A stretch of DNA of 10,316 nucleotides, taken from the UHGV virus genome UHGV-0214301. One strand, given 5' to 3'. The DNA comes from a virus. Below, piece by piece: positions 1 through 10,316 of the stretch. The notes under the pieces were generated by a model. The model searched no databases. It saw nothing but the letters and a program-made list of their open reading frames with translations, and was not told the origin of the DNA. How positions within the stretch are numbered: position 1 is the first letter of the stretch; the number at the start of each line of letters is the position of its first letter. The position numbers were made by a program, and so were the translations under genes.

Positions 1-1
1 T

Positions 2-967
2 ACCCAGACTATCCGCATGATTCTGGTTGTCACGAATACCGAAGCCATCACGCTGAAAATCGACCCGTCGGTGGTACTGGCGACCCGTAAATACGTGGAT
101 GATGAAGTCCTGGAATTAAGACTGTATGTGGATGACAAGATGAGAAACCACATTGCCGCACAGGATCCTCATATCCAGTATGCGCAGAAACATAATCCGA
201 CATTTACCGGAGAACCAAAAGCGCCGACGCCTGCCGCAGGAAATAACACCACGCGGATTGCGACCACTGAGTTTGTTCAGGCTGCTATTATCGCTCTGAT
301 TAACGGTGCGCCTGCCACGCTGGACACACTGAAAGAAATTGCCGCGGCCATTAACAATGACCCGAAATTCAGCACCACCATTAACAATGCGCTGTCAGGT
401 AAGCAGCCACTGGATGAGACGCTGACTCATTTGAGTGGAAAGGATGTTGCCGGTCTTCTCGCATACCTTGGTTTGGGAGAAGGCTCAGCATTACCTGTTG
501 GGGTGCCTGTTCCGTGGCCTTCAGCCACTCCGCCAACAGGCTGGCTGAAATGCAATGGTGCGGCTTTTTCTGCTGAAGAATACCCGGAACTGGCAAAGGC
601 TTACCCGACCAATAAATTGCCTGATTTACGAGGTGAATTTATTCGTGGCTGGGATGACGGGCGTGGTATTGATAATGGGCGAAGCCTTCTTACTGTTCAG
701 GGGTATGCAACAGAGGATCACGCTCATGGATTACCGTCAAGATCCACGATTGTGACTGATGCAACGATTAATTTTTATTTTGATGAAAGCTGGGTAAATA
801 GTGGCACAGACATTATCAAAAGAGGAAACACAAACGATGCCGGATTACCAGCACCGGATTATGGAACCTTTAAAACATATAAACAATCAGTGGCTGGTTT
901 AGGTGCCGCAGCCTCAGAAACGCGTCCGCGTAATATTGCATTTAACTATATCGTGAGGGCAGCCTGA
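2..967 (+). CDS. H: Tail fibre protein, C-terminal part (5' end lies upstream of the window); P2 gpH equivalent
   Basis: Open frame runs from the window edge (frame of position 2) to TGA at 965-967. The translation has a repeated ATTEFV-type fibre shaft motif and a C-terminal segment (PWPSATPPTGWL...GEFIRGWDDGRGID...HAHGLP) typical of Mu S/P1 S-type tail-collar fibre tips. The stop overlaps the start of the next gene as TGATG. Identification by recognition, not search. Confidence 0.88.
   Translation, partial: TQTIRMILVVTNTEAITLKIDPSVVLATRKYVDDEVLELRLYVDDKMRNHIAAQDPHIQYAQKHNPTFTGEPKAPTPAAGNNTTRIATTEFVQAAIIALINGAPATLDTLKEIAAAINNDPKFSTTINNALSGKQPLDETLTHLSGKDVAGLLAYLGLGEGSALPVGVPVPWPSATPPTGWLKCNGAAFSAEEYPELAKAYPTNKLPDLRGEFIRGWDDGRGIDNGRSLLTVQGYATEDHAHGLPSRSTIVTDATINFYFDESWVNSGTDIIKRGNTNDAGLPAPDYGTFKTYKQSVAGLGAAASETRPRNIAFNYIVRAA
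456..481. other. Candidate hix/gix-like 26-bp invertase crossover site, embedded in H at the constant/variable junction
   Basis: Sequence TTCTCGCATACC-TT-GGTTTGGGAGAA is an imperfect dyad: the left half and the reverse complement of the right half (TTCTCCCAAACC) agree at 9 of 12 positions. As I recall hixL (TTCTTGAAAACCAAGGTTTTTGATAA) it matches at about 19 of 26 positions, including the ACC-NN-GGTTT core. It encodes LLAYLGLGE, immediately before the collar-type variable tip. Confidence 0.4.
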
Positions 968-1569
968 TGCATAAAGCAATATTAAATAGTGAGTTTATTG
1001 CAACAAAGGCAGGGGATGTTACCGTTTATAACTACGATGGTGAAACACGGGAATATATTTCCACGTCAACTGAATATCTTGCTGTGGGTGTCGGTATTCC
1101 GGCATGTTCCTGTCTGGATGCACCTGGCATACATAAGGTTGGTTATGCAATCTGTCGTTCTGTGAATTTAAATTCATGGGAATATGTGCCAGACCATCGC
1201 GGTGAAATCGTCTATAGCACCGAAACAGGAGAATCGAAAGAAATCACAGCTCCGGGTGATTATCCTGAAAATACAACCACTATCGCCCCGTTAACGCCAT
1301 ACGATGAATGGAATGGTGAGAAATGGGTGACAGATACCGAGACACAGCATGGCGCAGCAGTAGATGCAGCAGAAGCACAGCGCCAGTCGCTGATTGATAC
1401 TGCAATGGCCTCCATCAATCTGATTCAACTGAAATTACAGGCCGGACGGAAGCTGACGCAGGCAGAAACAACCCGCCTTAACGCTGTGCTGGATTACATT
1501 GACGCGGTGACGGCAACAGATACCAGCACAGCGCCGGATGTCATCTGGCCTGAACTGCCGGAGGCGTAG
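967..1569 (+). CDS. G: Tail fibre assembly protein (Tfa/Mu U family; P2 gpG position)
   Basis: 200-aa ORF whose ATG overlaps the H stop (TGATG). The C-terminus (LNAVLDYIDAVTATDTSTAPDVIWPELPEA) carries the conserved Tfa signature ending APD-x-WP-x-x-P. It sits directly after the fibre gene. P2 gpG is 175 aa as I recall, so this is a different Tfa allele. Confidence 0.85.
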   Translation: MHKAILNSEFIATKAGDVTVYNYDGETREYISTSTEYLAVGVGIPACSCLDAPGIHKVGYAICRSVNLNSWEYVPDHRGEIVYSTETGESKEITAPGDYPENTTTIAPLTPYDEWNGEKWVTDTETQHGAAVDAAEAQRQSLIDTAMASINLIQLKLQAGRKLTQAETTRLNAVLDYIDAVTATDTSTAPDVIWPELPEA

Positions 1570-1669
1570 GCCATTCAATATCTGGCGCACCAGAAGTATC
1601 GACCAGCTCCAGTGCGTCCAGATAATCTAACCACAAATTGTATTGTTCTAAATCGCCACCTTTTAGCAG
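1541..1669 (-). pseudogene. Remnant of an oppositely oriented tail-fibre assembly gene (tfa', C-terminal ~40 codons only)
   Basis: The minus-strand frame translates to LLKGGDLEQYNLWLDYLDALELVDTSGAPDIEWPTPPAVQAR-stop. This aligns with the G C-terminus on the + strand (NAVLDYIDAVTATDTSTAPDVIWPELPEA). It is cut off upstream by an in-frame stop (+ strand 1670-1672) and overlaps the last ~29 nt of G head to head. Confidence 0.6.
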
Positions 1670-2137
1670 TCAACATCCGATCCTCTTTTGAAGGGAAAGG
1701 CATTAATCCATATGGGGTTCCTGAATTGTTAGCGCCAATTTCTTTCCGGATGCAGACTAAGAATTCACTCATATGCCATGCATTTTTTATAAACGACAAG
1801 CATTGCCCAAGAGTGCGTTAGATGATAGGTGGGAAGAAGTGACAGAAACAGCTAATATCATTGTTCAGCGTAGAGTTGGCAGTGGGCTATGCTCCATCAC
1901 TCAGTGTCCGATAGTATAGAGGCTTGCAGTCCAGTGCACAGATTAGTATGTGTCCGTTTTGTTTCATCCATGTATTGGGAACTGTATAGTTAAATAAAAA
2001 GTGTACAAATTACAATCGCCACTGTAATCATGTGAAAGAATAGATTAATATATCGCATCGGCAAACGTAAGGATGATGTTAAATCGCTTGTGGTTTCTAC
2101 TCACAAAATGATGTTTTATTAATTTTAGGGTTTTATT

Positions 2138-2162
2138 AAAAGGGGATGTAATATCCTTTTTT
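2138..2162 (+). terminator. Possible weak hairpin followed by a T-tract, ~48 bp upstream of the acyltransferase ATG
   Basis: AAAAGGGGAT-gtaat-ATCCTTTTTT: a short GGAT/ATCC stem extendable through G-U pairs, followed by T6. The stem is short and AT-rich, so function is uncertain. Confidence 0.2.
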
Positions 2163-2209
2163 ATAAATTTGATGTATGGTTTTTTGAACTTACACATAAA
2201 AGGTATAAC

Positions 2210-3364
2210 ATGCTGCCTAATCAATCAGTTTTACTTATCTGGATGTTTGTGTTGATGACCGCTATCATTGTTTTATTCTCCACGCAACAATTTAATTTCT
2301 TGGACAAGGATGTGAAATACCGAAATGAGCAGATAGATGGTCTCCGTTTTTTCTTATCAATATTTGTTGTGTTTCATCATTATGTGTTGTCTGAATCATA
2401 TTTTTTCGGCTCAGGATGGACATATGATGCAATCAAAGAGTATCCAGTTAACCAAGTTATTGGTAGATATGGGGTTTCCTTATTTTTCATGATCTCTGGA
2501 TTCTTGTTTTGCAATATTAAATCAAGCGCTAGAGATTGGTTTGTTTTTTATATAAAAAGATTCTTCAGGATAGCGCCTTTATTTACTTTATCATCTTGCG
2601 TTTGTATATCTTTAGCCTTTTTTTTATCACAAAATCCGTCAACATCAGACATATCACTAAAGAGCCTCGCCTATTGGTTTAATATGGGGTTGTCCATGAC
2701 TAAACCAGATATATTTAGTTTGCAAAACTCAAGTTTAATTAACGCTTCTGTAACTTGGACTTTGTACTGGGAATGGGGTTTTTATTTTTCACTGCCATTT
2801 GTATTATTTCTAAAATCAAAGTGGTGTGGGCTATCATTGTCTATCAGTATTATCTTTTTATGTGTTTTTATTTACGCAGATATTAATTCATTCAATGCAA
2901 CGCTCATTTCCTTCTTTTCTATAGGGTTTCTCTGCGCAGAGTTAACAAAAATAATTTCGCTATCTGTGCGAACTTGTAATGTGCTTATTGTTTTTGGGGG
3001 GGTGTTCTGCATTTTTATCGTGGATGATCCATATACAATCTTCAGTATTCCAGGTGTTGGTCTGATTTTTTTTGCTATATCAATGGGCGGAGATTTTTTT
3101 GGTTTATTAAAAATGAAAGGTGTTAGAAGACTTGGTGAAATAACATATAGTACTTATATGTTGCATGGAATTTTTCTCTATGTTCTAAATTTTTTTATTT
3201 CTCCTAATATAAGCAAACAGACATACATGTTGTTGTCGAGCTTTACTATCTTGCTTATTCTAATAATATCTTCATTTACATTTTATGTAATAGAAGCCCC
3301 ATTAAATAAATTAGGTTCTCAAATCGCCACTCGTATGCTTAAGACACATTTGAAGAGTCATTAA
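2210..3364 (+). CDS. Acyltransferase family 3 (OafA/Oac-like) integral membrane protein; probable surface-polysaccharide/LPS O-acyltransferase carried as cargo
   Basis: 384-aa ORF, hydrophobic throughout with multiple predicted membrane-spanning segments. It carries the AT3 hallmarks as I recognise them: an N-terminal R-x-IDGLR-x(10)-H motif (RNEQIDGLRFFLSIFVVFHH), GVSLFFMISGFLF, and a C-terminal ITYSTYMLH plus FYVIEAPLNKLG. About 30% GC on counted lines, sharply lower than the flanking tail genes. No fused SGNH domain. Start codon not certain (an internal Met lies at residue 17). Confidence 0.85.
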   Translation: MLPNQSVLLIWMFVLMTAIIVLFSTQQFNFLDKDVKYRNEQIDGLRFFLSIFVVFHHYVLSESYFFGSGWTYDAIKEYPVNQVIGRYGVSLFFMISGFLFCNIKSSARDWFVFYIKRFFRIAPLFTLSSCVCISLAFFLSQNPSTSDISLKSLAYWFNMGLSMTKPDIFSLQNSSLINASVTWTLYWEWGFYFSLPFVLFLKSKWCGLSLSISIIFLCVFIYADINSFNATLISFFSIGFLCAELTKIISLSVRTCNVLIVFGGVFCIFIVDDPYTIFSIPGVGLIFFAISMGGDFFGLLKMKGVRRLGEITYSTYMLHGIFLYVLNFFISPNISKQTYMLLSSFTILLILIISSFTFYVIEAPLNKLGSQIATRMLKTHLKSH

Positions 3365-3384
3365 ACATAGATAATGTTATTTTT

Positions 3385-3414
3385 GCTCTGAAGCGGTTTT
3401 TATTACTTCAGAGC
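3385..3414. terminator. Perfect 9-bp inverted repeat hairpin just after the acyltransferase stop; possible terminator or transcript-stabilising element
   Basis: GCTCTGAAG-cggtttttatta-CTTCAGAGC, 20 bp past the stop at 3362-3364. A T-run precedes the stem and another lies in the loop, but no U-tract follows on either strand, so it is not a canonical intrinsic terminator. Confidence 0.25.
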
Positions 3415-3466
3415 AATACGGATTCCGACAGGTCGGGGTTAAAAAACTGCGCATAACATTATCTGA

Positions 3467-3700
3467 GGGTGCCATTCTGGTTCTCTGGAAGCAACCAGAG
3501 CTAAAGATCGTATTGGTGGCAGACGTCCGAAACTCACCGCGAGTGAGTGGGAGCAGGCCGGACGGTTGCTGGCTGCGGGGGAGTCACGTCAACGTGTGGC
3601 GCTGATTTTTGATATTGGCCTGTCACCGCTCTATAAAAAATTCCCCTCATCAGCGACAAAGAATAAATTGTGTCATCCCTTAGCCAACCGGGACAAATAG
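3467..3700 (+). pseudogene. 3'-terminal remnant of a serine DNA invertase gene (Gin/Hin/Pin/Cin family), C-terminal HTH domain only
   Basis: The frame translates to ...LEATRAKDRIGGRRPKLTASEWEQAGRLLAAGESRQRVALIFDIGLSPLYKKFP..., matching the conserved C-terminal DNA-binding end of Gin/Pin-type invertases (GRIGGR-P-KLT...EWEQAGRLLA-G..R..VA-I.....S.LYK.FP). The frame is closed by TGA at 3464-3466 and there is no catalytic N-terminal domain or start codon upstream. Confidence 0.7.
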
Positions 3701-3740
3701 CCTGACATCTCCGGCACAACTGAAAATACCACTCACCCAT
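3668..3740 (+). promoter_or_regulatory. Putative Ogr-dependent late promoter for the FI operon (PF)
   Basis: Position is immediately upstream of FI. A partial dyad TTGT-N21-ACAA (3668-3696) is centred about 55 bp upstream of a plausible start near 3737. It does not match the TGT-N12-ACA consensus I recall for P2/P4 late promoters, so this is a low-confidence call. Confidence 0.3.
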
Positions 3741-3759
3741 TAACCACGGAGTTAAACGG

Positions 3760-4950
3760 ATGAGTGACTATCATCACGGCGTGCAGGTGCTGGAGATTAA
3801 CGACGGCACCCGCGTCATTTCCACCGTATCCACCGCCATTGTTGGCATGGTCTGCACGGCCAGCGATGCGGATGCGGAAACCTTCCCCCTCAATAAACCT
3901 GTGCTGATTACCAATGTGCAGAGCGCAATTGCAAAGGCCGGTAAAAAAGGCACGCTGGCGGCATCGTTGCAGGCCATCGCTGACCAGTCAAAACCGGTCA
4001 CCGTTGTCGTGCGCGTGGAAGACGGCACCGGTGATGACGAGGAAACGAAACTCGCGCAGACCGTTTCCAATATCATCGGCACCACCGACGAAAACGGTCA
4101 GTACACCGGACTGAAAGCCCTGCTGGCGGCGGAGTCGGTAACCGGTGTTAAACCGCGTATTCTCGGTGTGCCGGGACTGGACACCAAAGAGGTGGCTGTT
4201 GCACTGGCATCAGTCTGTCAGAAGCTGCGCGCTTTCGGGTATATCAGCGCATGGGGCTGTAAGACCATTTCCGAGGTGAAAGCCTACCGCCAGAATTTCA
4301 GCCAGCGTGAGCTGATGGTCATCTGGCCGGATTTCCTCGCATGGGATACGGTCACCAGTACCACCGCCACCGCGTATGCCACCGCCCGTGCGCTGGGTCT
4401 GCGCGCTAAAATCGACCAGGAGCAGGGCTGGCATAAAACGCTGTCCAACGTCGGGGTGAACGGTGTTACCGGCATCAGCGCATCCGTCTTCTGGGATTTG
4501 CAGGAGTCCGGCACCGATGCTGACCTGCTTAACGAGTCAGGCGTCACTACGCTGATTCGCCGCGACGGTTTCCGATTCTGGGGTAACCGTACCTGCTCTG
4601 ATGACCCGCTGTTCCTCTTTGAAAACTATACCCGCACCGCGCAGGTGCTGGCCGACACGATGGCTGAGGCGCACATGTGGGCGGTGGACAAGCCCATCAC
4701 CGCAACGCTGATTCGCGACATCGTTGACGGCATCAATGCCAAATTCCGTGAGCTGAAAACAAACGGCTATATCGTGGATGCGACCTGCTGGTTCAGCGAA
4801 GAATCCAACGATGCGGAAACCCTCAAGGCCGGAAAACTGTATATCGACTACGACTATACACCGGTGCCTCCTCTTGAAAACCTGACCCTGCGCCAGCGTA
4901 TTACCGATAAATACCTGGCAAATCTGGTCACCTCGGTTAACAGCAATTAA
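3760..4950 (+). CDS. FI: Contractile tail sheath protein
   Basis: 396-aa ORF, the same length as P2 gpFI as I recall, first gene of the FI-FII-E-T-U-D order. GGAG Shine-Dalgarno about 9 nt upstream. High-GC codon usage like the neighbouring tail genes. Confidence 0.93.
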   Translation: MSDYHHGVQVLEINDGTRVISTVSTAIVGMVCTASDADAETFPLNKPVLITNVQSAIAKAGKKGTLAASLQAIADQSKPVTVVVRVEDGTGDDEETKLAQTVSNIIGTTDENGQYTGLKALLAAESVTGVKPRILGVPGLDTKEVAVALASVCQKLRAFGYISAWGCKTISEVKAYRQNFSQRELMVIWPDFLAWDTVTSTTATAYATARALGLRAKIDQEQGWHKTLSNVGVNGVTGISASVFWDLQESGTDADLLNESGVTTLIRRDGFRFWGNRTCSDDPLFLFENYTRTAQVLADTMAEAHMWAVDKPITATLIRDIVDGINAKFRELKTNGYIVDATCWFSEESNDAETLKAGKLYIDYDYTPVPPLENLTLRQRITDKYLANLVTSVNSN

Positions 4951-4962
4951 GGAGCCTGACCG

Positions 4963-5481
4963 ATGGCAATGCCGCGCAAACTCAAGTTAATGAACGTCTT
5001 TCTGAACGGCTACAGCTATCAGGGCGTCGCGAAGTCCGTCACGCTGCCAAAACTGACCCGTAAGCTCGAAAACTATCGCGGTGCGGGGATGAACGGCAGC
5101 GCACCGGTAGACCTCGGCCTTGATGACGATGCGCTGTCAATGGAGTGGTCGCTCGGGGGCTTCCCGGATTCGGTTATCTGGGAGCTTTACGCCGCAACCG
5201 GTGTGGATGCTGTGCCGATTCGTTTTGCAGGCTCTTACCAGCGTGACGATACCGGCGAAACGGTGGCCGTCGAAGTGGTCATGCGTGGACGTCAGAAAGA
5301 AATCGACACCGGCGAGGGTAAACAGGGAGAAGACACTGAGTCGAAAATCTCCGTGGTCTGCACCTATTTCCGGCTGACGATGGACGGTAAGGAGCTGGTC
5401 GAAATCGACACCATCAACATGATTGAGAAGGTGAACGGCGTCGACCGGCTGGAGCAACACCGCCGCAATATCGGCCTGTGA
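4963..5481 (+). CDS. FII: Tail tube protein
   Basis: 172-aa ORF, the length of P2 gpFII, 12 nt after the FI stop, preceded by AAGGAG. Confidence 0.93.
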   Translation: MAMPRKLKLMNVFLNGYSYQGVAKSVTLPKLTRKLENYRGAGMNGSAPVDLGLDDDALSMEWSLGGFPDSVIWELYAATGVDAVPIRFAGSYQRDDTGETVAVEVVMRGRQKEIDTGEGKQGEDTESKISVVCTYFRLTMDGKELVEIDTINMIEKVNGVDRLEQHRRNIGL

Positions 5482-5537
5482 TTTTCATCCGGTCAGCCAG
5501 GCTGACCGGTTAACCCTGATTCAGAAGTGAGAAAACC

Positions 5538-5813
5538 ATGAACAAAGAAAATGTGATTACCCTGGACAATCCGGTCAAGCGTGGTGAGCAGGTCATCGAA
5601 CAGGTCACGCTGATGAAACCCAGTGCCGGGACGCTGCGCGGTGTCAGTCTGGCTGCGGTCGCAAACTCCGAAGTTGATGCACTAATTAAGGTGTTGCCGC
5701 GCATGACGGCACCGATGCTGACCGAGCAGGAAGTTGCCGCACTGGAACTGCCTGACCTTGTGGCGCTGGCCGGTAAGGTGGTCGGTTTTTTGTCGCCGAA
5801 CTCGGTGCAGTAA
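5538..5813 (+). CDS. E: Tail assembly chaperone E (zero-frame product)
   Basis: 91-aa ORF between the tube and tape-measure genes, the length of P2 gpE. It contains the slippery heptamer near its 3' end. Confidence 0.88.
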   Translation: MNKENVITLDNPVKRGEQVIEQVTLMKPSAGTLRGVSLAAVANSEVDALIKVLPRMTAPMLTEQEVAALELPDLVALAGKVVGFLSPNSVQ

Positions 5814-5965
5814 CGTTCCCGAAAAATCTCTCGGTCGATGACCTGATGGCGGATGTGGCAGTGATATTTCACTGGCCGCCATCAGAACTGTATCCCATGA
5901 GCCTGACCGAACTCATCACATGGCGCGAAAAGGCGCTCCGGCGAAGCGGAAACACGAATGAGTAA
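5538..5965 (+). CDS. E+E': Tail assembly chaperone E+E' (-1 frameshift fusion; 85 aa zero frame + 57 aa in -1 frame)
   Basis: Slipping at 5786-5792 and continuing in the -1 frame gives ...GFLVAELGAVTFPKNLSVDDLMADVAVIFHWPPSELYPMSLTELITWREKALRRSGNTNE-stop. The total is 142 aa, equal to P2 E+E' as I recall, and the end overlaps the T start at 5958, as in the P2 and lambda G/GT arrangement. Confidence 0.75.
5786..5792 (+). other. Programmed -1 ribosomal frameshift slippery heptamer T TTT TTG
   Basis: The zero-frame codons are TTT (5787-5789) and TTG (5790-5792), fitting the X XXY YYZ pattern. The -1 frame is open from here to TAA at 5963-5965. Confidence 0.75.
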
Positions 5966-8405
5966 CAATGTAAAATTACAGGTATTGCTCAGGGCTGTTG
6001 ACCAGGCATCCCGCCCGTTTAAATCCATCCGCACAGCGAGCAAATCGCTGTCGGGGGATATCCGGGAAACACAAAAATCACTGCGAGAGCTGAACGGTCA
6101 GGCATCCCGTATTGAGGGATTTCGCAAGACAAGTGCACAGCTCGCCGTGACTGGTCATGCACTTGAAAAGGCTCGGCAGGAAGCCGAAGCCCTTACCACA
6201 CAGTTTAAAAACACCGAACGTCCGACCCGTGCTCAGGCGAAAGTGCTGGAGTCCGCGAAGCGTGCGGCGGAGGACTTACAGGCGAAATATAACCGCCTGA
6301 CGGATTCCGTTAAACGCCAGCAGCGGGAACTGGCCGTTGTGGGAATTAATACCCGCAATCTTGCACGTGATGAGCAGGGACTGAAAAACCGTATCAGTGA
6401 AACCACCGCACAGCTTAACCGTCAGCGTGACGCGCTGGCGCGTGTCAGTGCGCAACAGGCAAAACTTAACGCAGTAAAACAGCGTTATCAGGCAGGCAAG
6501 GAACTGGCCGGAAATATGGCCTCAGTGGGCGCTGCCGGTGTGGGGATTGCGGCGGCGGGAACGATGGCCGGAGTTAAGTTGCTGACGCCCGGTTATGAGT
6601 TTGCGCAGAAAAACTCAGAATTGCAGGCCGTGCTCGGTGTGGCAAAAGATTCCGCCGAAATGGCCGCGCTCCGCAAGCAGGCGCGCCAGCTCGGCGATAA
6701 TACCGCCGCCTCGGCGGATGATGCAGCCGGTGCGCAGATTATCATTGCGAAAGCGGGTGGAGATGTTGATGCCATTCAGGCGGCAACGCCGGTCACGCTG
6801 AATATGGCGCTGGCGAACCGTCGCACGATGGAAGAAAACGCCGCCCTGCTGATGGGGATGAAATCCGCCTTTCAGCTTTCAAACGATAAGGTCGCTCATA
6901 TCGGGGATGTTCTCTCCATGACGATGAACAAAACCGCCGCCGATTTTGACGGCATGAGCGATGCGCTGACCTATGCCGCACCTGTGGCAAAAAATGCCGG
7001 TGTCAGCATTGAAGAAACCGCCGCAATGGTCGGGGCGCTGCATGATGCAAAAATCACAGGCTCAATGGCGGGAACGGGAAGCCGTGCCGTGTTAAGCCGC
7101 CTGCAGGCACCGACGGGAAAAGCATGGGATGCACTCAAAGAGCTTGGTGTGAAAACCTCAGACAGTAAGGGAAACACCCGACCAGTATTTACCATTCTGA
7201 AAGAAATGCAGGCCAGCTTTGAGAAAAACCGGCTCGGTACTGCCCAGCAGGCTGAATACATGAAAACCATTTTCGGGGAGGAGGCCAGTTCAGCCGCCGC
7301 CGTGCTGATGACTGCCGCCTCAACCGGAAAGCTGGACAAACTGACCGCTGCGTTTAAAGCCTCAGACGGAAAGACCGCAGAGCTGGTAAATATCATGCAG
7401 GACAACCTCGGCGGTGACTTTAAGGAGTTTCAGTCCGCTTATGAGGCGGTGGGGACTGACCTGTTTGACCAGCAGGAAGGCGCACTGCGTAAGCTCACGC
7501 AGACGGCCACAAAGTATGTGTTAAAACTCGACGGCTGGATCCAGAAAAACAAATCACTGGCGTCAACCATCGGCCTTATTGTCGGTGGTGCACTGGCGCT
7601 TACTGGCATCATCGGTGCAATTGGTCTTGTAGCCTGGCCGGTTATCACCGGCATTAATGCCATCATCGCGGCAGCAGGCGCAATGGGGGCAATCTTCACG
7701 ACGGTTGGCAGTGCTGTTATGACGGCCATCGGGGCGATTAGCTGGCCGATTGTGGCTGTGGTGGCCGCCATTGTCGCCGGGGCGTTGCTTATCCGTAAAT
7801 ACTGGGAGCCTGTCAGCGCATTCTTTGGCGGTGTGGTTGAAGGGCTGAAAGCGGCATTTGCGCCAGTGGGGGAACTGTTCACGCCACTTAAGCCGGTGTT
7901 TGACTGGCTGGGTGAAAAGTTACAGGCCGCGTGGCAGTGGTTTAAAAACCTGATTGCCCCGGTCAAAGCTACCCAGGACACCCTGAACCGTTGCCGTGAC
8001 ACGGGCGTCATGTTCGGGCAGGCACTGGCTGACGCGCTGATGCTGCCGCTTAATGCGTTCAACAAACTGCGCAGTGGTATTGACTGGGTACTGGAAAAAC
8101 TCGGTGTTATCAACAAAGAGTCAGACACACTTGACCAGACCGCCGCCAGAACTCAAGCCGCCACGTATGGCAGCGGTGGTTATATTCCGGCGACCAGCTC
8201 TTATGCAGGTTATCAGGCTTATCAGCCGGTCACGGCACCGGCTGGCCGCTCTTATGTGGACCAGAGTAAAAACGAATATCACATCAGCCTGACGGGTGGT
8301 ACTGCACCGGGGACACAGCTTGACCGCCAGTTACAGGATGCGCTCGAAAAATACGAGCGGGATAAACGTGCGCGCGCCCGTGCCAGCATGATGCATGACG
8401 GTTAA
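5958..8405 (+). CDS. T: Tail tape measure protein
   Basis: 815-aa ORF, the length of P2 gpT. The N-terminal region is rich in Q/R/A/L (coiled-coil-like), and there is a long Gly/Ala/Ile-rich hydrophobic segment (LASTIGLIVGGALALTGIIGAIGLVAWPVITG...), typical of tape measure proteins. Position follows E/E'. Confidence 0.93.
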   Translation: MSNNVKLQVLLRAVDQASRPFKSIRTASKSLSGDIRETQKSLRELNGQASRIEGFRKTSAQLAVTGHALEKARQEAEALTTQFKNTERPTRAQAKVLESAKRAAEDLQAKYNRLTDSVKRQQRELAVVGINTRNLARDEQGLKNRISETTAQLNRQRDALARVSAQQAKLNAVKQRYQAGKELAGNMASVGAAGVGIAAAGTMAGVKLLTPGYEFAQKNSELQAVLGVAKDSAEMAALRKQARQLGDNTAASADDAAGAQIIIAKAGGDVDAIQAATPVTLNMALANRRTMEENAALLMGMKSAFQLSNDKVAHIGDVLSMTMNKTAADFDGMSDALTYAAPVAKNAGVSIEETAAMVGALHDAKITGSMAGTGSRAVLSRLQAPTGKAWDALKELGVKTSDSKGNTRPVFTILKEMQASFEKNRLGTAQQAEYMKTIFGEEASSAAAVLMTAASTGKLDKLTAAFKASDGKTAELVNIMQDNLGGDFKEFQSAYEAVGTDLFDQQEGALRKLTQTATKYVLKLDGWIQKNKSLASTIGLIVGGALALTGIIGAIGLVAWPVITGINAIIAAAGAMGAIFTTVGSAVMTAIGAISWPIVAVVAAIVAGALLIRKYWEPVSAFFGGVVEGLKAAFAPVGELFTPLKPVFDWLGEKLQAAWQWFKNLIAPVKATQDTLNRCRDTGVMFGQALADALMLPLNAFNKLRSGIDWVLEKLGVINKESDTLDQTAARTQAATYGSGGYIPATSSYAGYQAYQPVTAPAGRSYVDQSKNEYHISLTGGTAPGTQLDRQLQDALEKYERDKRARARASMMHDG

Positions 8406-8419
8406 GGAGGTGACGAAAA

Positions 8420-8899
8420 ATGATGCTCGCGTTAGGTATGTTTGTTTTTATGCGCCAGACGCTGCCACACCAGACCATGCAGCGTGAATCAGATTATCGC
8501 TGGCCGTCAAATTCCCGTATCGGTAAACGGGATGCCTACCAGTTTCTCGGCGTTGGTGAGGAAAACATGACGCTTGCCGGTGTGCTTTATCCCGAACTGA
8601 CCGGCGGCAAGCTGACGATGACCACGCTCAGACTGATGGCAGAGGAAGGCCGGGCGTGGCCGTTGCTGGATGGCACAGGCATGATTTACGGCATGTATGT
8701 CATCAGCAGGGTGAGTGAAACAGGGAGTATTTTCTTTGCAGACGGCACACCCCGGAAAATTGATTTTACGCTGTCACTCACCCGCGTGGATGAATCACTG
8801 GCCGCGCTTTATGGCGATATCGGTAAACAGGCAGAATCGCTCATCGGTAAGGCTGGCAGTATGGCGACTAAATTCACGGGGATGACGGGGGCGGAATAA
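8420..8899 (+). CDS. U: Tail protein U (tail tube terminator/baseplate-proximal protein)
   Basis: 159-aa ORF, the length of P2 gpU, with a strong AAGGAGG Shine-Dalgarno at 8404-8410. The stop overlaps the D start as TAATG. Confidence 0.88.
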   Translation: MMLALGMFVFMRQTLPHQTMQRESDYRWPSNSRIGKRDAYQFLGVGEENMTLAGVLYPELTGGKLTMTTLRLMAEEGRAWPLLDGTGMIYGMYVISRVSETGSIFFADGTPRKIDFTLSLTRVDESLAALYGDIGKQAESLIGKAGSMATKFTGMTGAE

Positions 8900-10062
8900 T
8901 GCTGGATGCGCTGACATTTGATGCAGGCAGTACGCTGACGCCGGATTACATGCTGATGCTCGACAGCAGGGATATTACCGGCAATATCAGCGACCGTCTG
9001 ATGAGCATGACCCTGACGGATAACCGGGGCTTTGAGGCTGACCAGCTTGATATTGAACTGAACGATGCCGACGGGCAGGTCGGGCTGCCGGTTCGTGGCG
9101 CTGTCCTGACGGTGTATATCGGCTGGAAAGGTTTTGCCCTGGTATGCAAAGGGAAATTTACCGTTGATGAGGTTGAACACCGGGGCGCGCCGGATGTGGT
9201 TACCATCCGCGCCCGGAGTGCAGATTTTCGCGGGACGCTCAATTCCCGCCGGGAAGGCTCCTGGCATGACACCACGCTCGGTGCGATTGTTGAGGTGATA
9301 GCCTCCCGTAACAGGCTGGAAGCCAGTGTCGCGCCGTCACTGGCCGGAATTAAAATCCCGCACATCGACCAGTCGCAGGAGTCCGATGCGAAATTCCTGA
9401 CCCGTCTTGCTGAACGCAACGGCGGTGAGGTGTCGGTAAAAATGGGAAAATTGTTGTTTCTCAAAGCGGGGCAGGGGGTGACGGCCAGTGGTAAAAAAAT
9501 CCCGCAGGTCACCATAACCCGCAGCGACGGCGACCGCCATCATTTTGCGATTGCTGACCGTGGAGCCTATACCGGCGTAACGGCAAAGTGGTTACACACC
9601 AAAGACCCGAAGCCACAAAAGCAGAAGGTAAAACTGAAACGCAAAAAGAAAGAGAAACACCTGCGCGCACTGGAGCACCCGAAAGCGAAACCGGTCACGC
9701 AGAAGAAAGCGCCAAAAGTACCGGAAGCGCGCGAAGGTGAATACATGGCAGGTGAGGCTGACAACGTTTTTGCCCTGACCACGGTATATGCCACGAAAGC
9801 GCAGGCCATGCGCGCCGCTCAGGCGAAGTGGGATAAGCTGCAACGGGGCGTTGCGGAGTTCTCCATCAGTCTGGCTACTGGTCGGGCAGATATTTACACG
9901 GAAACGCCGGTCAGAGTATCAGGCTTTAAGCGCGTCATAGACGAGCAGGACTGGACAATCACTAAGGTGACACATTTTCTGAATAATAGCGGCTTCACGA
10001 CGTCCCTGGAGCTTGAGGTCAGGCTTTCTGATGTGGAGTACGAAACAGAAGATGATGAGTGA
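8899..10062 (+). CDS. D: Tail protein D (late gene D, tail/baseplate hub family)
   Basis: 387-aa ORF, the length of P2 gpD, translationally coupled to U and last gene before ogr. Contains a lysine-rich basic segment (KDPKPQKQKVKLKRKKKEKHLRALEHPKAKPVTQKKAPK). Confidence 0.88.
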   Translation: MLDALTFDAGSTLTPDYMLMLDSRDITGNISDRLMSMTLTDNRGFEADQLDIELNDADGQVGLPVRGAVLTVYIGWKGFALVCKGKFTVDEVEHRGAPDVVTIRARSADFRGTLNSRREGSWHDTTLGAIVEVIASRNRLEASVAPSLAGIKIPHIDQSQESDAKFLTRLAERNGGEVSVKMGKLLFLKAGQGVTASGKKIPQVTITRSDGDRHHFAIADRGAYTGVTAKWLHTKDPKPQKQKVKLKRKKKEKHLRALEHPKAKPVTQKKAPKVPEAREGEYMAGEADNVFALTTVYATKAQAMRAAQAKWDKLQRGVAEFSISLATGRADIYTETPVRVSGFKRVIDEQDWTITKVTHFLNNSGFTTSLELEVRLSDVEYETEDDE

Positions 10063-10080
10063 TGTTTTTATTTTATCTGT

Positions 10081-10109
10081 TTGTTTTATAAGGATAAATT
10101 AACTAAAAT
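10081..10109 (+). promoter_or_regulatory. Putative sigma-70 promoter of ogr
   Basis: TTGTTT (10081-10086), a 17-bp spacer, then TAAAAT (10104-10109). The predicted transcript start is about 27 nt upstream of the ATG at 10144, which has an AGGTG Shine-Dalgarno 7 nt upstream. Confidence 0.4.
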
Positions 10110-10143
10110 GGCACCATCAACAAAACCGGAAGAGGTGCTCGCG

Positions 10144-10316
10144 ATGTTTCATTGTCCTTTATGCCAGCATGCCGCACATGCGCGTACAAGTCGCTATATC
10201 ACTGACACGACAAAAGAGCGTTATCACCAGTGTCAGAACGTGAATTGCAGCGCCACGTTCATCACTTATGAGTCGGTACAGCGATACATCGTGAAGCCGG
10301 GAGAAGTCCACGCCGT
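10144..10316 (+). CDS. ogr: Late transcription activator Ogr (Cys4 zinc finger), 3' end beyond the window
   Basis: Translation MFHCPLCQHAAHARTSRYITDTTKERYHQCQNVNCSATFITYESVQRYIVKPGEVHA... matches P2 Ogr as I remember it, including the CPLC...CQNVNC zinc-binding cysteines. An in-frame ATG at 10108 would add 12 residues but lies inside the predicted -10 element, so 10144 is preferred. Confidence 0.9.
   Translation, partial: MFHCPLCQHAAHARTSRYITDTTKERYHQCQNVNCSATFITYESVQRYIVKPGEVHA

Follow-up and report, generated by a model that had tools for sequence, protein, structure and literature searches.

The invertible DNA segments of phage Mu (G segment, gin), phage P1 (C segment, cin) and Salmonella (H segment, hin) share one crossover site architecture, with 12-bp half-sites on either side of a 2-bp core. 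In Mu and P1 the site lies within a fiber gene and the invertase gene sits beside the segment, and the enhancer forms part of the 5'-terminal stretch of the invertase gene, as annotated for P1. DNA invertases are described as acting in a complex of two sites and a Fis-bound enhancer, with looping of the DNA (see PMC3798978). Escherichia coli K-12 carries a segment of this kind, the P segment with its invertase gene pinE (Plasterk and van de Putte 1985, as cited in PMC4272514 and PMC12529663), whose inversion site is a 16-bp inverted repeat (sequence per PMC12529663). The P segment belongs to e14, called a lambdoid element in the title of Mehta et al. 2004 (as cited in PMC4272514), and inversion has been shown experimentally in the P2-like prophages of EPEC E2348/69 (PMC4272514). 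Phage P2 itself retains an orphan gix-like site at the constant/variable junction of its fiber gene H, has no invertase, and carries the cargo gene fun/Z between G and FI. The P2 site is identical to Mu gixL at 23 of 26 positions, and the similarity of P2 to Mu S starts at this site.

Here we describe a 10,316-nt stretch of the virus genome UHGV-0214301 (the window), which Pfam, PHROG and DNA comparisons place in the late tail region of a P2-like (Peduovirus) prophage. A 26-mer at 456-481, within the tail fiber gene H, is in all probability the left (pixL-type) site of a decayed Pin-family invertible tail-fiber segment, left behind as a locked orphan relic. Such an orphan site is an already well-described kind of feature and calls for no new mechanism. 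The features of the window are as follows.

2..967, + strand: tail fiber gene H, 3' two-thirds, the window beginning within the gene (Phage_tail_fib and Collar)
2..467, + strand: constant (shaft) part of H (Pfam Phage_tail_fib; 94.5% identical to H of the intact prophage L001)
456..481, + strand: putative orphan pixL-type crossover site, TTCTCGCATACC-TT-GGTTTGGGAGAA (matrix score and pixL identity)
468..483, + strand: 16-bp TTGGTTTGGGAGAAGG, the inverted repeat of the e14 P segment (exact match)
470..967, + strand: variable tip of H, Collar domain, e14 StfE type (Pfam Collar, residues 167-214)
967..1569, + strand: tail fiber assembly gene, P2 G / e14 TfaE type, pairing with the fixed tip (Pfam Caudo_TAP, E = 6e-32)
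1541..~1775, - strand: 3' stump of tfa', the alternative, opposite-strand assembly gene (L001 alignment, translation)
1667..3484, no strand: replacement block relative to intact prophages (blastn against L001 and L002)
2210..3364, + strand: acyltransferase-3 / O-acetyltransferase gene, 384 aa (Pfam PF01757, E = 1e-26; PHROG 3333, E = 8e-51)
3418..3473, + strand: invertase pseudogene, fragment A (alignment to L001 and L002)
3485..3719, + strand: invertase pseudogene, fragment B (Pfam HTH_7, E = 3e-11; alignments)
3760-4950: FI (sheath)
4963-5481: FII (tube)
5538-5813: ORF at the position of P2 gene E
5958-8405: T (tape measure)
8420-8899: U
8899-10062: D

The crossover site in gene H

A preliminary description of this DNA had pointed to a 26-bp imperfect dyad of the Hin/Gin family at 456-481, and our analysis bears this out. 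The 26-mer, TTCTCGCATACCTTGGTTTGGGAGAA, is self-complementary at 20 of its 26 positions, with its central TT at 468-469. It has the site architecture of the Din family, two imperfect inverted 12-bp half-sites around a 2-bp core, and the core (TT on the + strand, AA on the opposite strand) is that of the hix, cix, pix and mix sites. Scored with a half-site position weight matrix derived from the published hix, gix, cix, pix, mix and bix sites (PMC3241671, Table 3), it reaches 29.8 bits, within the range of bona fide sites (18.6-32.5 bits), compared to 5.9 bits for the runner-up 26-mer of the window. None of 200 shuffled windows attained this score (mean of the shuffle maxima 8.6 bits, largest 17.8), so that the motif is indeed closer to invertase sites than shuffled sequence is. 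The result was the same when the pix sites were dropped from the matrix (27.8 bits) and when the matrix was made from hix, gix and cix alone (25.9 bits). Additionally, the consensus TTCNNNNAAACCNNGGTTTNNNNGAA, with up to 3 mismatches allowed, matched the window only at 456-481, with 1 mismatch, where dinucleotide-preserving shuffles give an expectation of 0.07 matches.

Alignment with the published sites, which the preliminary description had called for, places the 26-mer nearest to those of e14. Its reverse complement is identical to the published e14 pixL at 23 of 26 positions, compared to only 17-21 of 26 for the sites of Mu, P1 and Salmonella, whose systems are complete. Both pixL and pixR have the same left half as the reverse complement, and the window agrees fully with e14 in the inner half-site, the central dinucleotide and the 16-bp repeat. 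Based on its sequence, we regard the 26-mer as a genuine crossover site of the Din (Hin/Gin/Cin/Pin) family.

The site was also correctly placed at the boundary between fiber shaft and tip. Its outer half lies within the constant part of H and its inner half within the variable tip. The encoded peptide is LLAYLGLGE, residues 152-160 of the H fragment, and the Pfam Collar domain begins seven residues past it, at residue 167. Similarity to e14 starts inside the site as well: stfE-tfaE and the end of tfaP are 92.3% identical to window 465-1647, in inverted orientation, whereas the constant fiber part of e14 is unrelated to that of the window and no similarity exists upstream of the site. Because the e14 similarity begins within it and unrelated constant parts lie upstream, the site marks a past evolutionary border between modules. 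Compared with e14, pixR, the alternative tip and the invertase are gone here, and there is nothing to invert.

The preliminary description had found no convincing second site, and we agree: the matrix and consensus scans located none in the window, which also has no reverse-complement copy of the 16-bp TTGGTTTGGGAGAAGG. Nor does any second site of at least 16 bits occur in the 21-kb loci with the same module, which extend from the terminase gene to the chromosomal flank. A quasi-site of 15.0 bits, TATTCTAAAACC-TT-CTTATTGGCGTA, lies beyond the window at 4093-4118 of the related loci L007-L013, about 4.15 kb upstream of the site and with the same core orientation. The ORF around it, on the reverse strand between the tail genes S and V, encodes 261 aa and has no Pfam match; the quasi-site is probably due to chance, as shuffled sequence attains such scores. 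We also considered an inverted copy of H-constant (331-449 against 1671-1746) that might hide a right site near 1645-1670, and rejected it as chance matches. These short inverted matches have inconsistent offsets and a blastn E of about 2, and the region is the tfa' stump read in another frame.

Intact invertible segments in related prophages

A megablast search of complete E. coli genomes returned thousands of related prophages, none of which covers the middle of the query. Intact P2-like prophages and phages (for example NZ_CP022154, NZ_CP010242 and phage NC_041848) carry the same H with the same 26-mer at the same codon, at 94-97% DNA identity, and the same flanking genes I, H, tfa ... FI as the window. 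The intact layout runs from H-constant through the site, the tip Hv and tfa to tfa' (reverse), an alternative tip Hv' (reverse), an inverted site, the invertase and FI. In two annotated intact examples, L001 (NZ_CP022154) and L002 (NZ_CP007394), the alternative tip is a reverse 'gp53-like' ORF, followed by a 197-aa recombinase and then FI; the assembly gene corresponding to window 967..1569 is annotated tfaE in relatives.

The window's 26-mer is identical at all 26 positions to the left site of L001, L002, L014 and L015, where it occupies the same codon of H, and to that of 56 of the 73 IMG/VR relatives with a scorable site. In the same four prophages an inverted partner lies 1.8-1.9 kb downstream of the left site. 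The L001 partner is TTCTCCCAAACCAACGTTTATGAAAA, and in both L001 and L014 the partner matches the published pixR at 26 of 26 positions. It is located where the alternative-tip ORF has its 5' end, with the recombinase start about 55 nt farther on (L001, L002), and its outer half is non-coding DNA beside the invertase gene. The recombinase or DNA-invertase gene that follows is 594 nt long in L001, L002 and L014 and 495 nt long as annotated in L015; the invertase of the intact relatives is pin-like (85.7% over 384 nt).

Inversion is visible in these relatives. We computed the flipped junction by joining H-constant, through the central TT, to the far end of the segment in reverse complement. The product reads in frame (…LLAYLGLGEAAKRNVG…), and 39 complete E. 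coli genomes contain it as one contiguous match (identity up to 99.4%). Outside the two sites L014, one of the 39, aligns collinearly with L001; between them its sequence is inverted. In both comparisons, homologous copies of the 26-mer are the actual inversion breakpoints.

The metagenomic relatives give a similar picture. In 34 of the 80 closest IMG/VR relatives the partner site is present and a complete invertase follows about 80 nt later; 16 of the contigs break off at the 26-mer or within it, and several fold back on themselves through the segment at 100% identity. These contig ends and fold-backs are assembly signatures of mixed orientations in the sequenced culture, and the invertible segment systematically breaks or mis-joins short-read assemblies. 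Five contigs with a partner and no invertase (L022, L030, L040, L055 and L083) were considered as products of recombination between prophages and rejected. They contain inverted repeats of 99.9-100% identity, up to 4.2 kb or more in length, that begin at the crossover sites and fold back to the contig end, and they are assembly artifacts of a segment in mixed orientation.

A few other contigs depart from the intact layout. L036 (IMG/VR_UViG_640753023_000011) is a P2-like phage with a perfect 26-mer in H and a different tip downstream; neither a partner nor an invertase precedes FI in the 6 kb available downstream. This makes it an independent instance of an orphan site and the only clear one among the 80. 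In L044 no invertase follows the right-hand site; what follows is an inverted copy of part of H-constant, diverged (79-86%), and in L045 the right-hand site is identical to e14 pixL. Both look like real variant architectures, with two convergent fiber genes and no invertase within 6 kb.

Replacement of the segment by an acetyltransferase gene

What separates the window lineage from the intact P2-like prophages is the replacement of part of the segment by an acetyltransferase gene, which cost the lineage its right site, its enhancer region and the catalytic portion of its invertase. In blastn comparisons, window 1-1666 is 94.5% and window 3485-4000 is 96.7% identical to L001, and all between is replaced, 1,818 nt of the window standing in place of L001 3167-4300. 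Within that interval L001 has the bulk of tfa', Hv' as the alternative tip, the right site and nt 1-378 of the invertase gene. None of this replacement, including the acetyltransferase gene, the invertase pseudogene, the tfa' stump and the cis-acting switch once present in the same prophage, had figured in the preliminary description.

At the left edge, the L001 alignment stops at window 1666, within L001 tfa' (3041-3481, minus strand). The remaining tfa' is a 3' stump with the C-terminal residues ...LKGGDLEQYNLWLDYLDALELVDTSGAPDIEWPTP, its translation also given as …LWLDYLDALELVDTSGAPDIEWPTP, and window 1661-1775 is degenerate and about 77% identical to other tfa genes. With Hv' absent and tfa' reduced to this stump, only one tip and one tfa gene are intact in the window. 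A mechanical ORF at 1575-1799 on the minus strand was rejected as a gene, as its translation is nonsense.

The block itself is low in GC, 22-39% between 2001 and 3400, compared to about 50% in the flanks. Its core DNA matched nothing in 5,426 complete E. coli genomes or in phage or plasmid collections; the matches to 1667-3484 in these E. coli genomes, phages and plasmids were only short tfa and invertase fragments at its edges. NCBIfam returned no family for the acetyltransferase or for H. NCBI draft assemblies of E. coli do contain the exact acetyltransferase protein in the same setting, and 112 index blocks covering draft and metagenome assemblies list it. The draft-assembly prophage that carries the module adjoins yegQ-yegP-baeR, with a flank 100% identical to E. 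coli chromosomes. All 24 contigs that we read with the acetyltransferase have the order H - tfa - acyltransferase - sheath, and none of the 24, a limited sample of assemblies rather than of populations, shows a rearrangement at the site. The acetyltransferase is likely a lysogenic-conversion gene acting in surface-polysaccharide acetylation.

At the right edge lies an invertase pseudogene in two pieces. Fragment A, which is frameshifted, matches about nt 118-165 of an intact pin-like gene and shares only 76-79% identity with L001 and L002. Fragment B corresponds to the last ~71 codons (about 127-197; nt 379-594), comprising the HTH DNA-binding domain and the stop codon, and is about 97% identical to L001. 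The remnant is thus without about nt 1-117 and about nt 166-378, and the start codon, the catalytic serine region and the enhancer region are all absent from it. Consistent with this, Pfam recovered only HTH_7 from the remnant and no adjacent invertase with a catalytic N-terminal domain. In the P1 record the recombinational enhancer is annotated at nt 19-90 of cin, and DNA homologous to that interval is absent from the window. No pin-like gene found is more than 76-80% identical to the 5'-proximal invertase fragment (3418-3492), which is matched best by Klebsiella phages and by recombinase genes on E. coli plasmids; the two invertase pieces overlap by 8 nt in the alignments (3485-3492). The structure of the pseudogene suggests a recombination joint of two different invertase genes.

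The module also appears to have moved as a unit. Window 1-3888, which takes in the H tip, tfa, the acetyltransferase gene and the invertase pseudogene and reaches 130 nt into FI, shows 100% identity with eight NCBI E. coli loci, whereas window 3889-10316 differs from the same eight loci by 183 substitutions and no indels, or about 2.8%. Because identity is complete up to 3888 and about 2.8% is lost from 3889 onward, we infer that the cargo-gene module was exchanged between P2-like prophages by homologous recombination. The edge fragments diverge more than the rest, and for this reason the acetyltransferase may first have landed in the switch of a different phage lineage, with the decayed module moving later.

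These observations fit a simple sequence of events. In the ancestral prophage, an invertase and a Fis-bound enhancer in the 5' end of its own gene would have flipped a segment of about 1.9 kb, each flip connecting the shaft of H with one or the other of two tips and expressing the matching assembly protein. The 1.8-kb acetyltransferase replacement then took out Hv' and the bulk of tfa' together with the right site, and it also deleted the 5' portion of the invertase gene, where the catalytic serine and the enhancer region lay. With these parts removed, the switch is now locked, with H-constant joined to a collar tip of the StfE type and served by an assembly protein of the TfaE type. The left site would have persisted as part of the reading frame of an essential fiber gene, the loss being a recent event. 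Its survival needs no special cause, because the coding sequence in the block is invariant between copies, and it carries no independent conservation signal, because window 1-3888 is 100% identical to the eight copies. Phage P2 offers a more advanced stage: its relic is degraded (21.1 bits) and accompanied by no invertase remnant, whereas here the site is perfect and the pseudogene still visible, which argues that the decay in the window is more recent than that in P2.

Other readings of the site and their consequences

Although the intact relatives document a working switch, the window contains no partner, no complete invertase, no enhancer in cis homologous to that of P1 and only one tip, and so is not a functional segment; an unrelated enhancer elsewhere is conceivable. 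The whole system might still be intact and merely split, with partner, alternative tip and invertase outside the 10.3-kb window in the same prophage, of which the window is only a part. We consider this very improbable. In intact relatives the partner and the invertase always lie between tfa and FI, an interval that is wholly within the window and holds the pseudogene, and the 21-kb loci with the module have no second site of at least 16 bits, with about 12 kb of early genes lying outside these loci. Harder still to credit is a conserved coding motif, LLAYLGLGE, that merely resembles the Din consensus and was never a recombination site. The 26-mer does lie in frame within an essential gene, and P2, without an invertase, keeps the similar motif IEYLGLQE (21.1 bits) at the same junction. 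However, the inversion breakpoints of near-identical prophages fall inside this same 26-mer, the partner site stands in a different protein context with a non-coding outer half, and the score equals that of experimentally defined sites. For the family, a purely coding reading is already refuted by the flipped junctions and the L001/L014 inversion.

The remaining alternative keeps the site in use in trans: the invertase of another prophage, such as PinE of e14, PinQ of Qin, PinR of Rac or that of a second P2-like prophage, would join it to a compatible site elsewhere, with an exchange of fiber tips, or else a chromosomal inversion or deletion on a large scale, as the outcome. In its favor, the sequence of the site departs nowhere from that of functional left sites, it shares its inner half and central dinucleotide with e14 pixL and pixR, and the e14 similarity begins exactly in it, as expected of a past module border. 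Its identity at 26 of 26 positions to sites of intact systems implies that the putative orphan site could still be bound and cleaved by Pin-type enzymes. Of the 5,426 complete E. coli genomes, 2,851 have detectable pin-like genes, and trans action of Pin-family enzymes from one prophage on another is documented, PinQ of Qin inverting the e14 segment (PMC12529663); for these reasons resident invertases probably still bind the site. Productive recombination, however, needs a partner and an enhancer on the same DNA molecule, and none lies within 21 kb; the region homologous to the P1 enhancer is deleted here. In e14, deletion of one of its two repeats abolished the inversion-dependent effects of PinQ (PMC12529663). 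An e14 partner would be about 1 Mb distant, with the prophage at yegQ and e14 at about 1.2 Mb (K-12 coordinates only), and the uniform gene order of the contigs read with the module gives no sign of such events. We therefore regard use in trans as conceivable but very unlikely, and doubt as strongly, if not slightly more, that the site is a live substrate that occasionally recombines with a pix-type site of another prophage. Were this the case, a 'locked' phage could capture a new fiber tip, or megabase inversions could arise between prophages, and decayed switches would be recombination hot spots for fiber-module exchange.

We favor the locked relic of a Pin-family segment, in which the site, without a partner and an enhancer in cis, should be inert. 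The value of this finding is chiefly for annotation. Together, the site, the invertase pseudogene and the tfa' stump record a host-range switch frozen in its StfE/TfaE (collar-tip) state, and the prophage has gained a probable lysogenic-conversion gene, an O-acetyltransferase, in exchange for that switch. The locus provides an example of how, at the G-FI hot spot of P2-like phages, a cargo gene (moron) can displace a module subject to phase variation. Finally, the e14 homology has its border exactly at the site, an illustration of the old idea that Din sites mark the borders at which fiber modules are exchanged.
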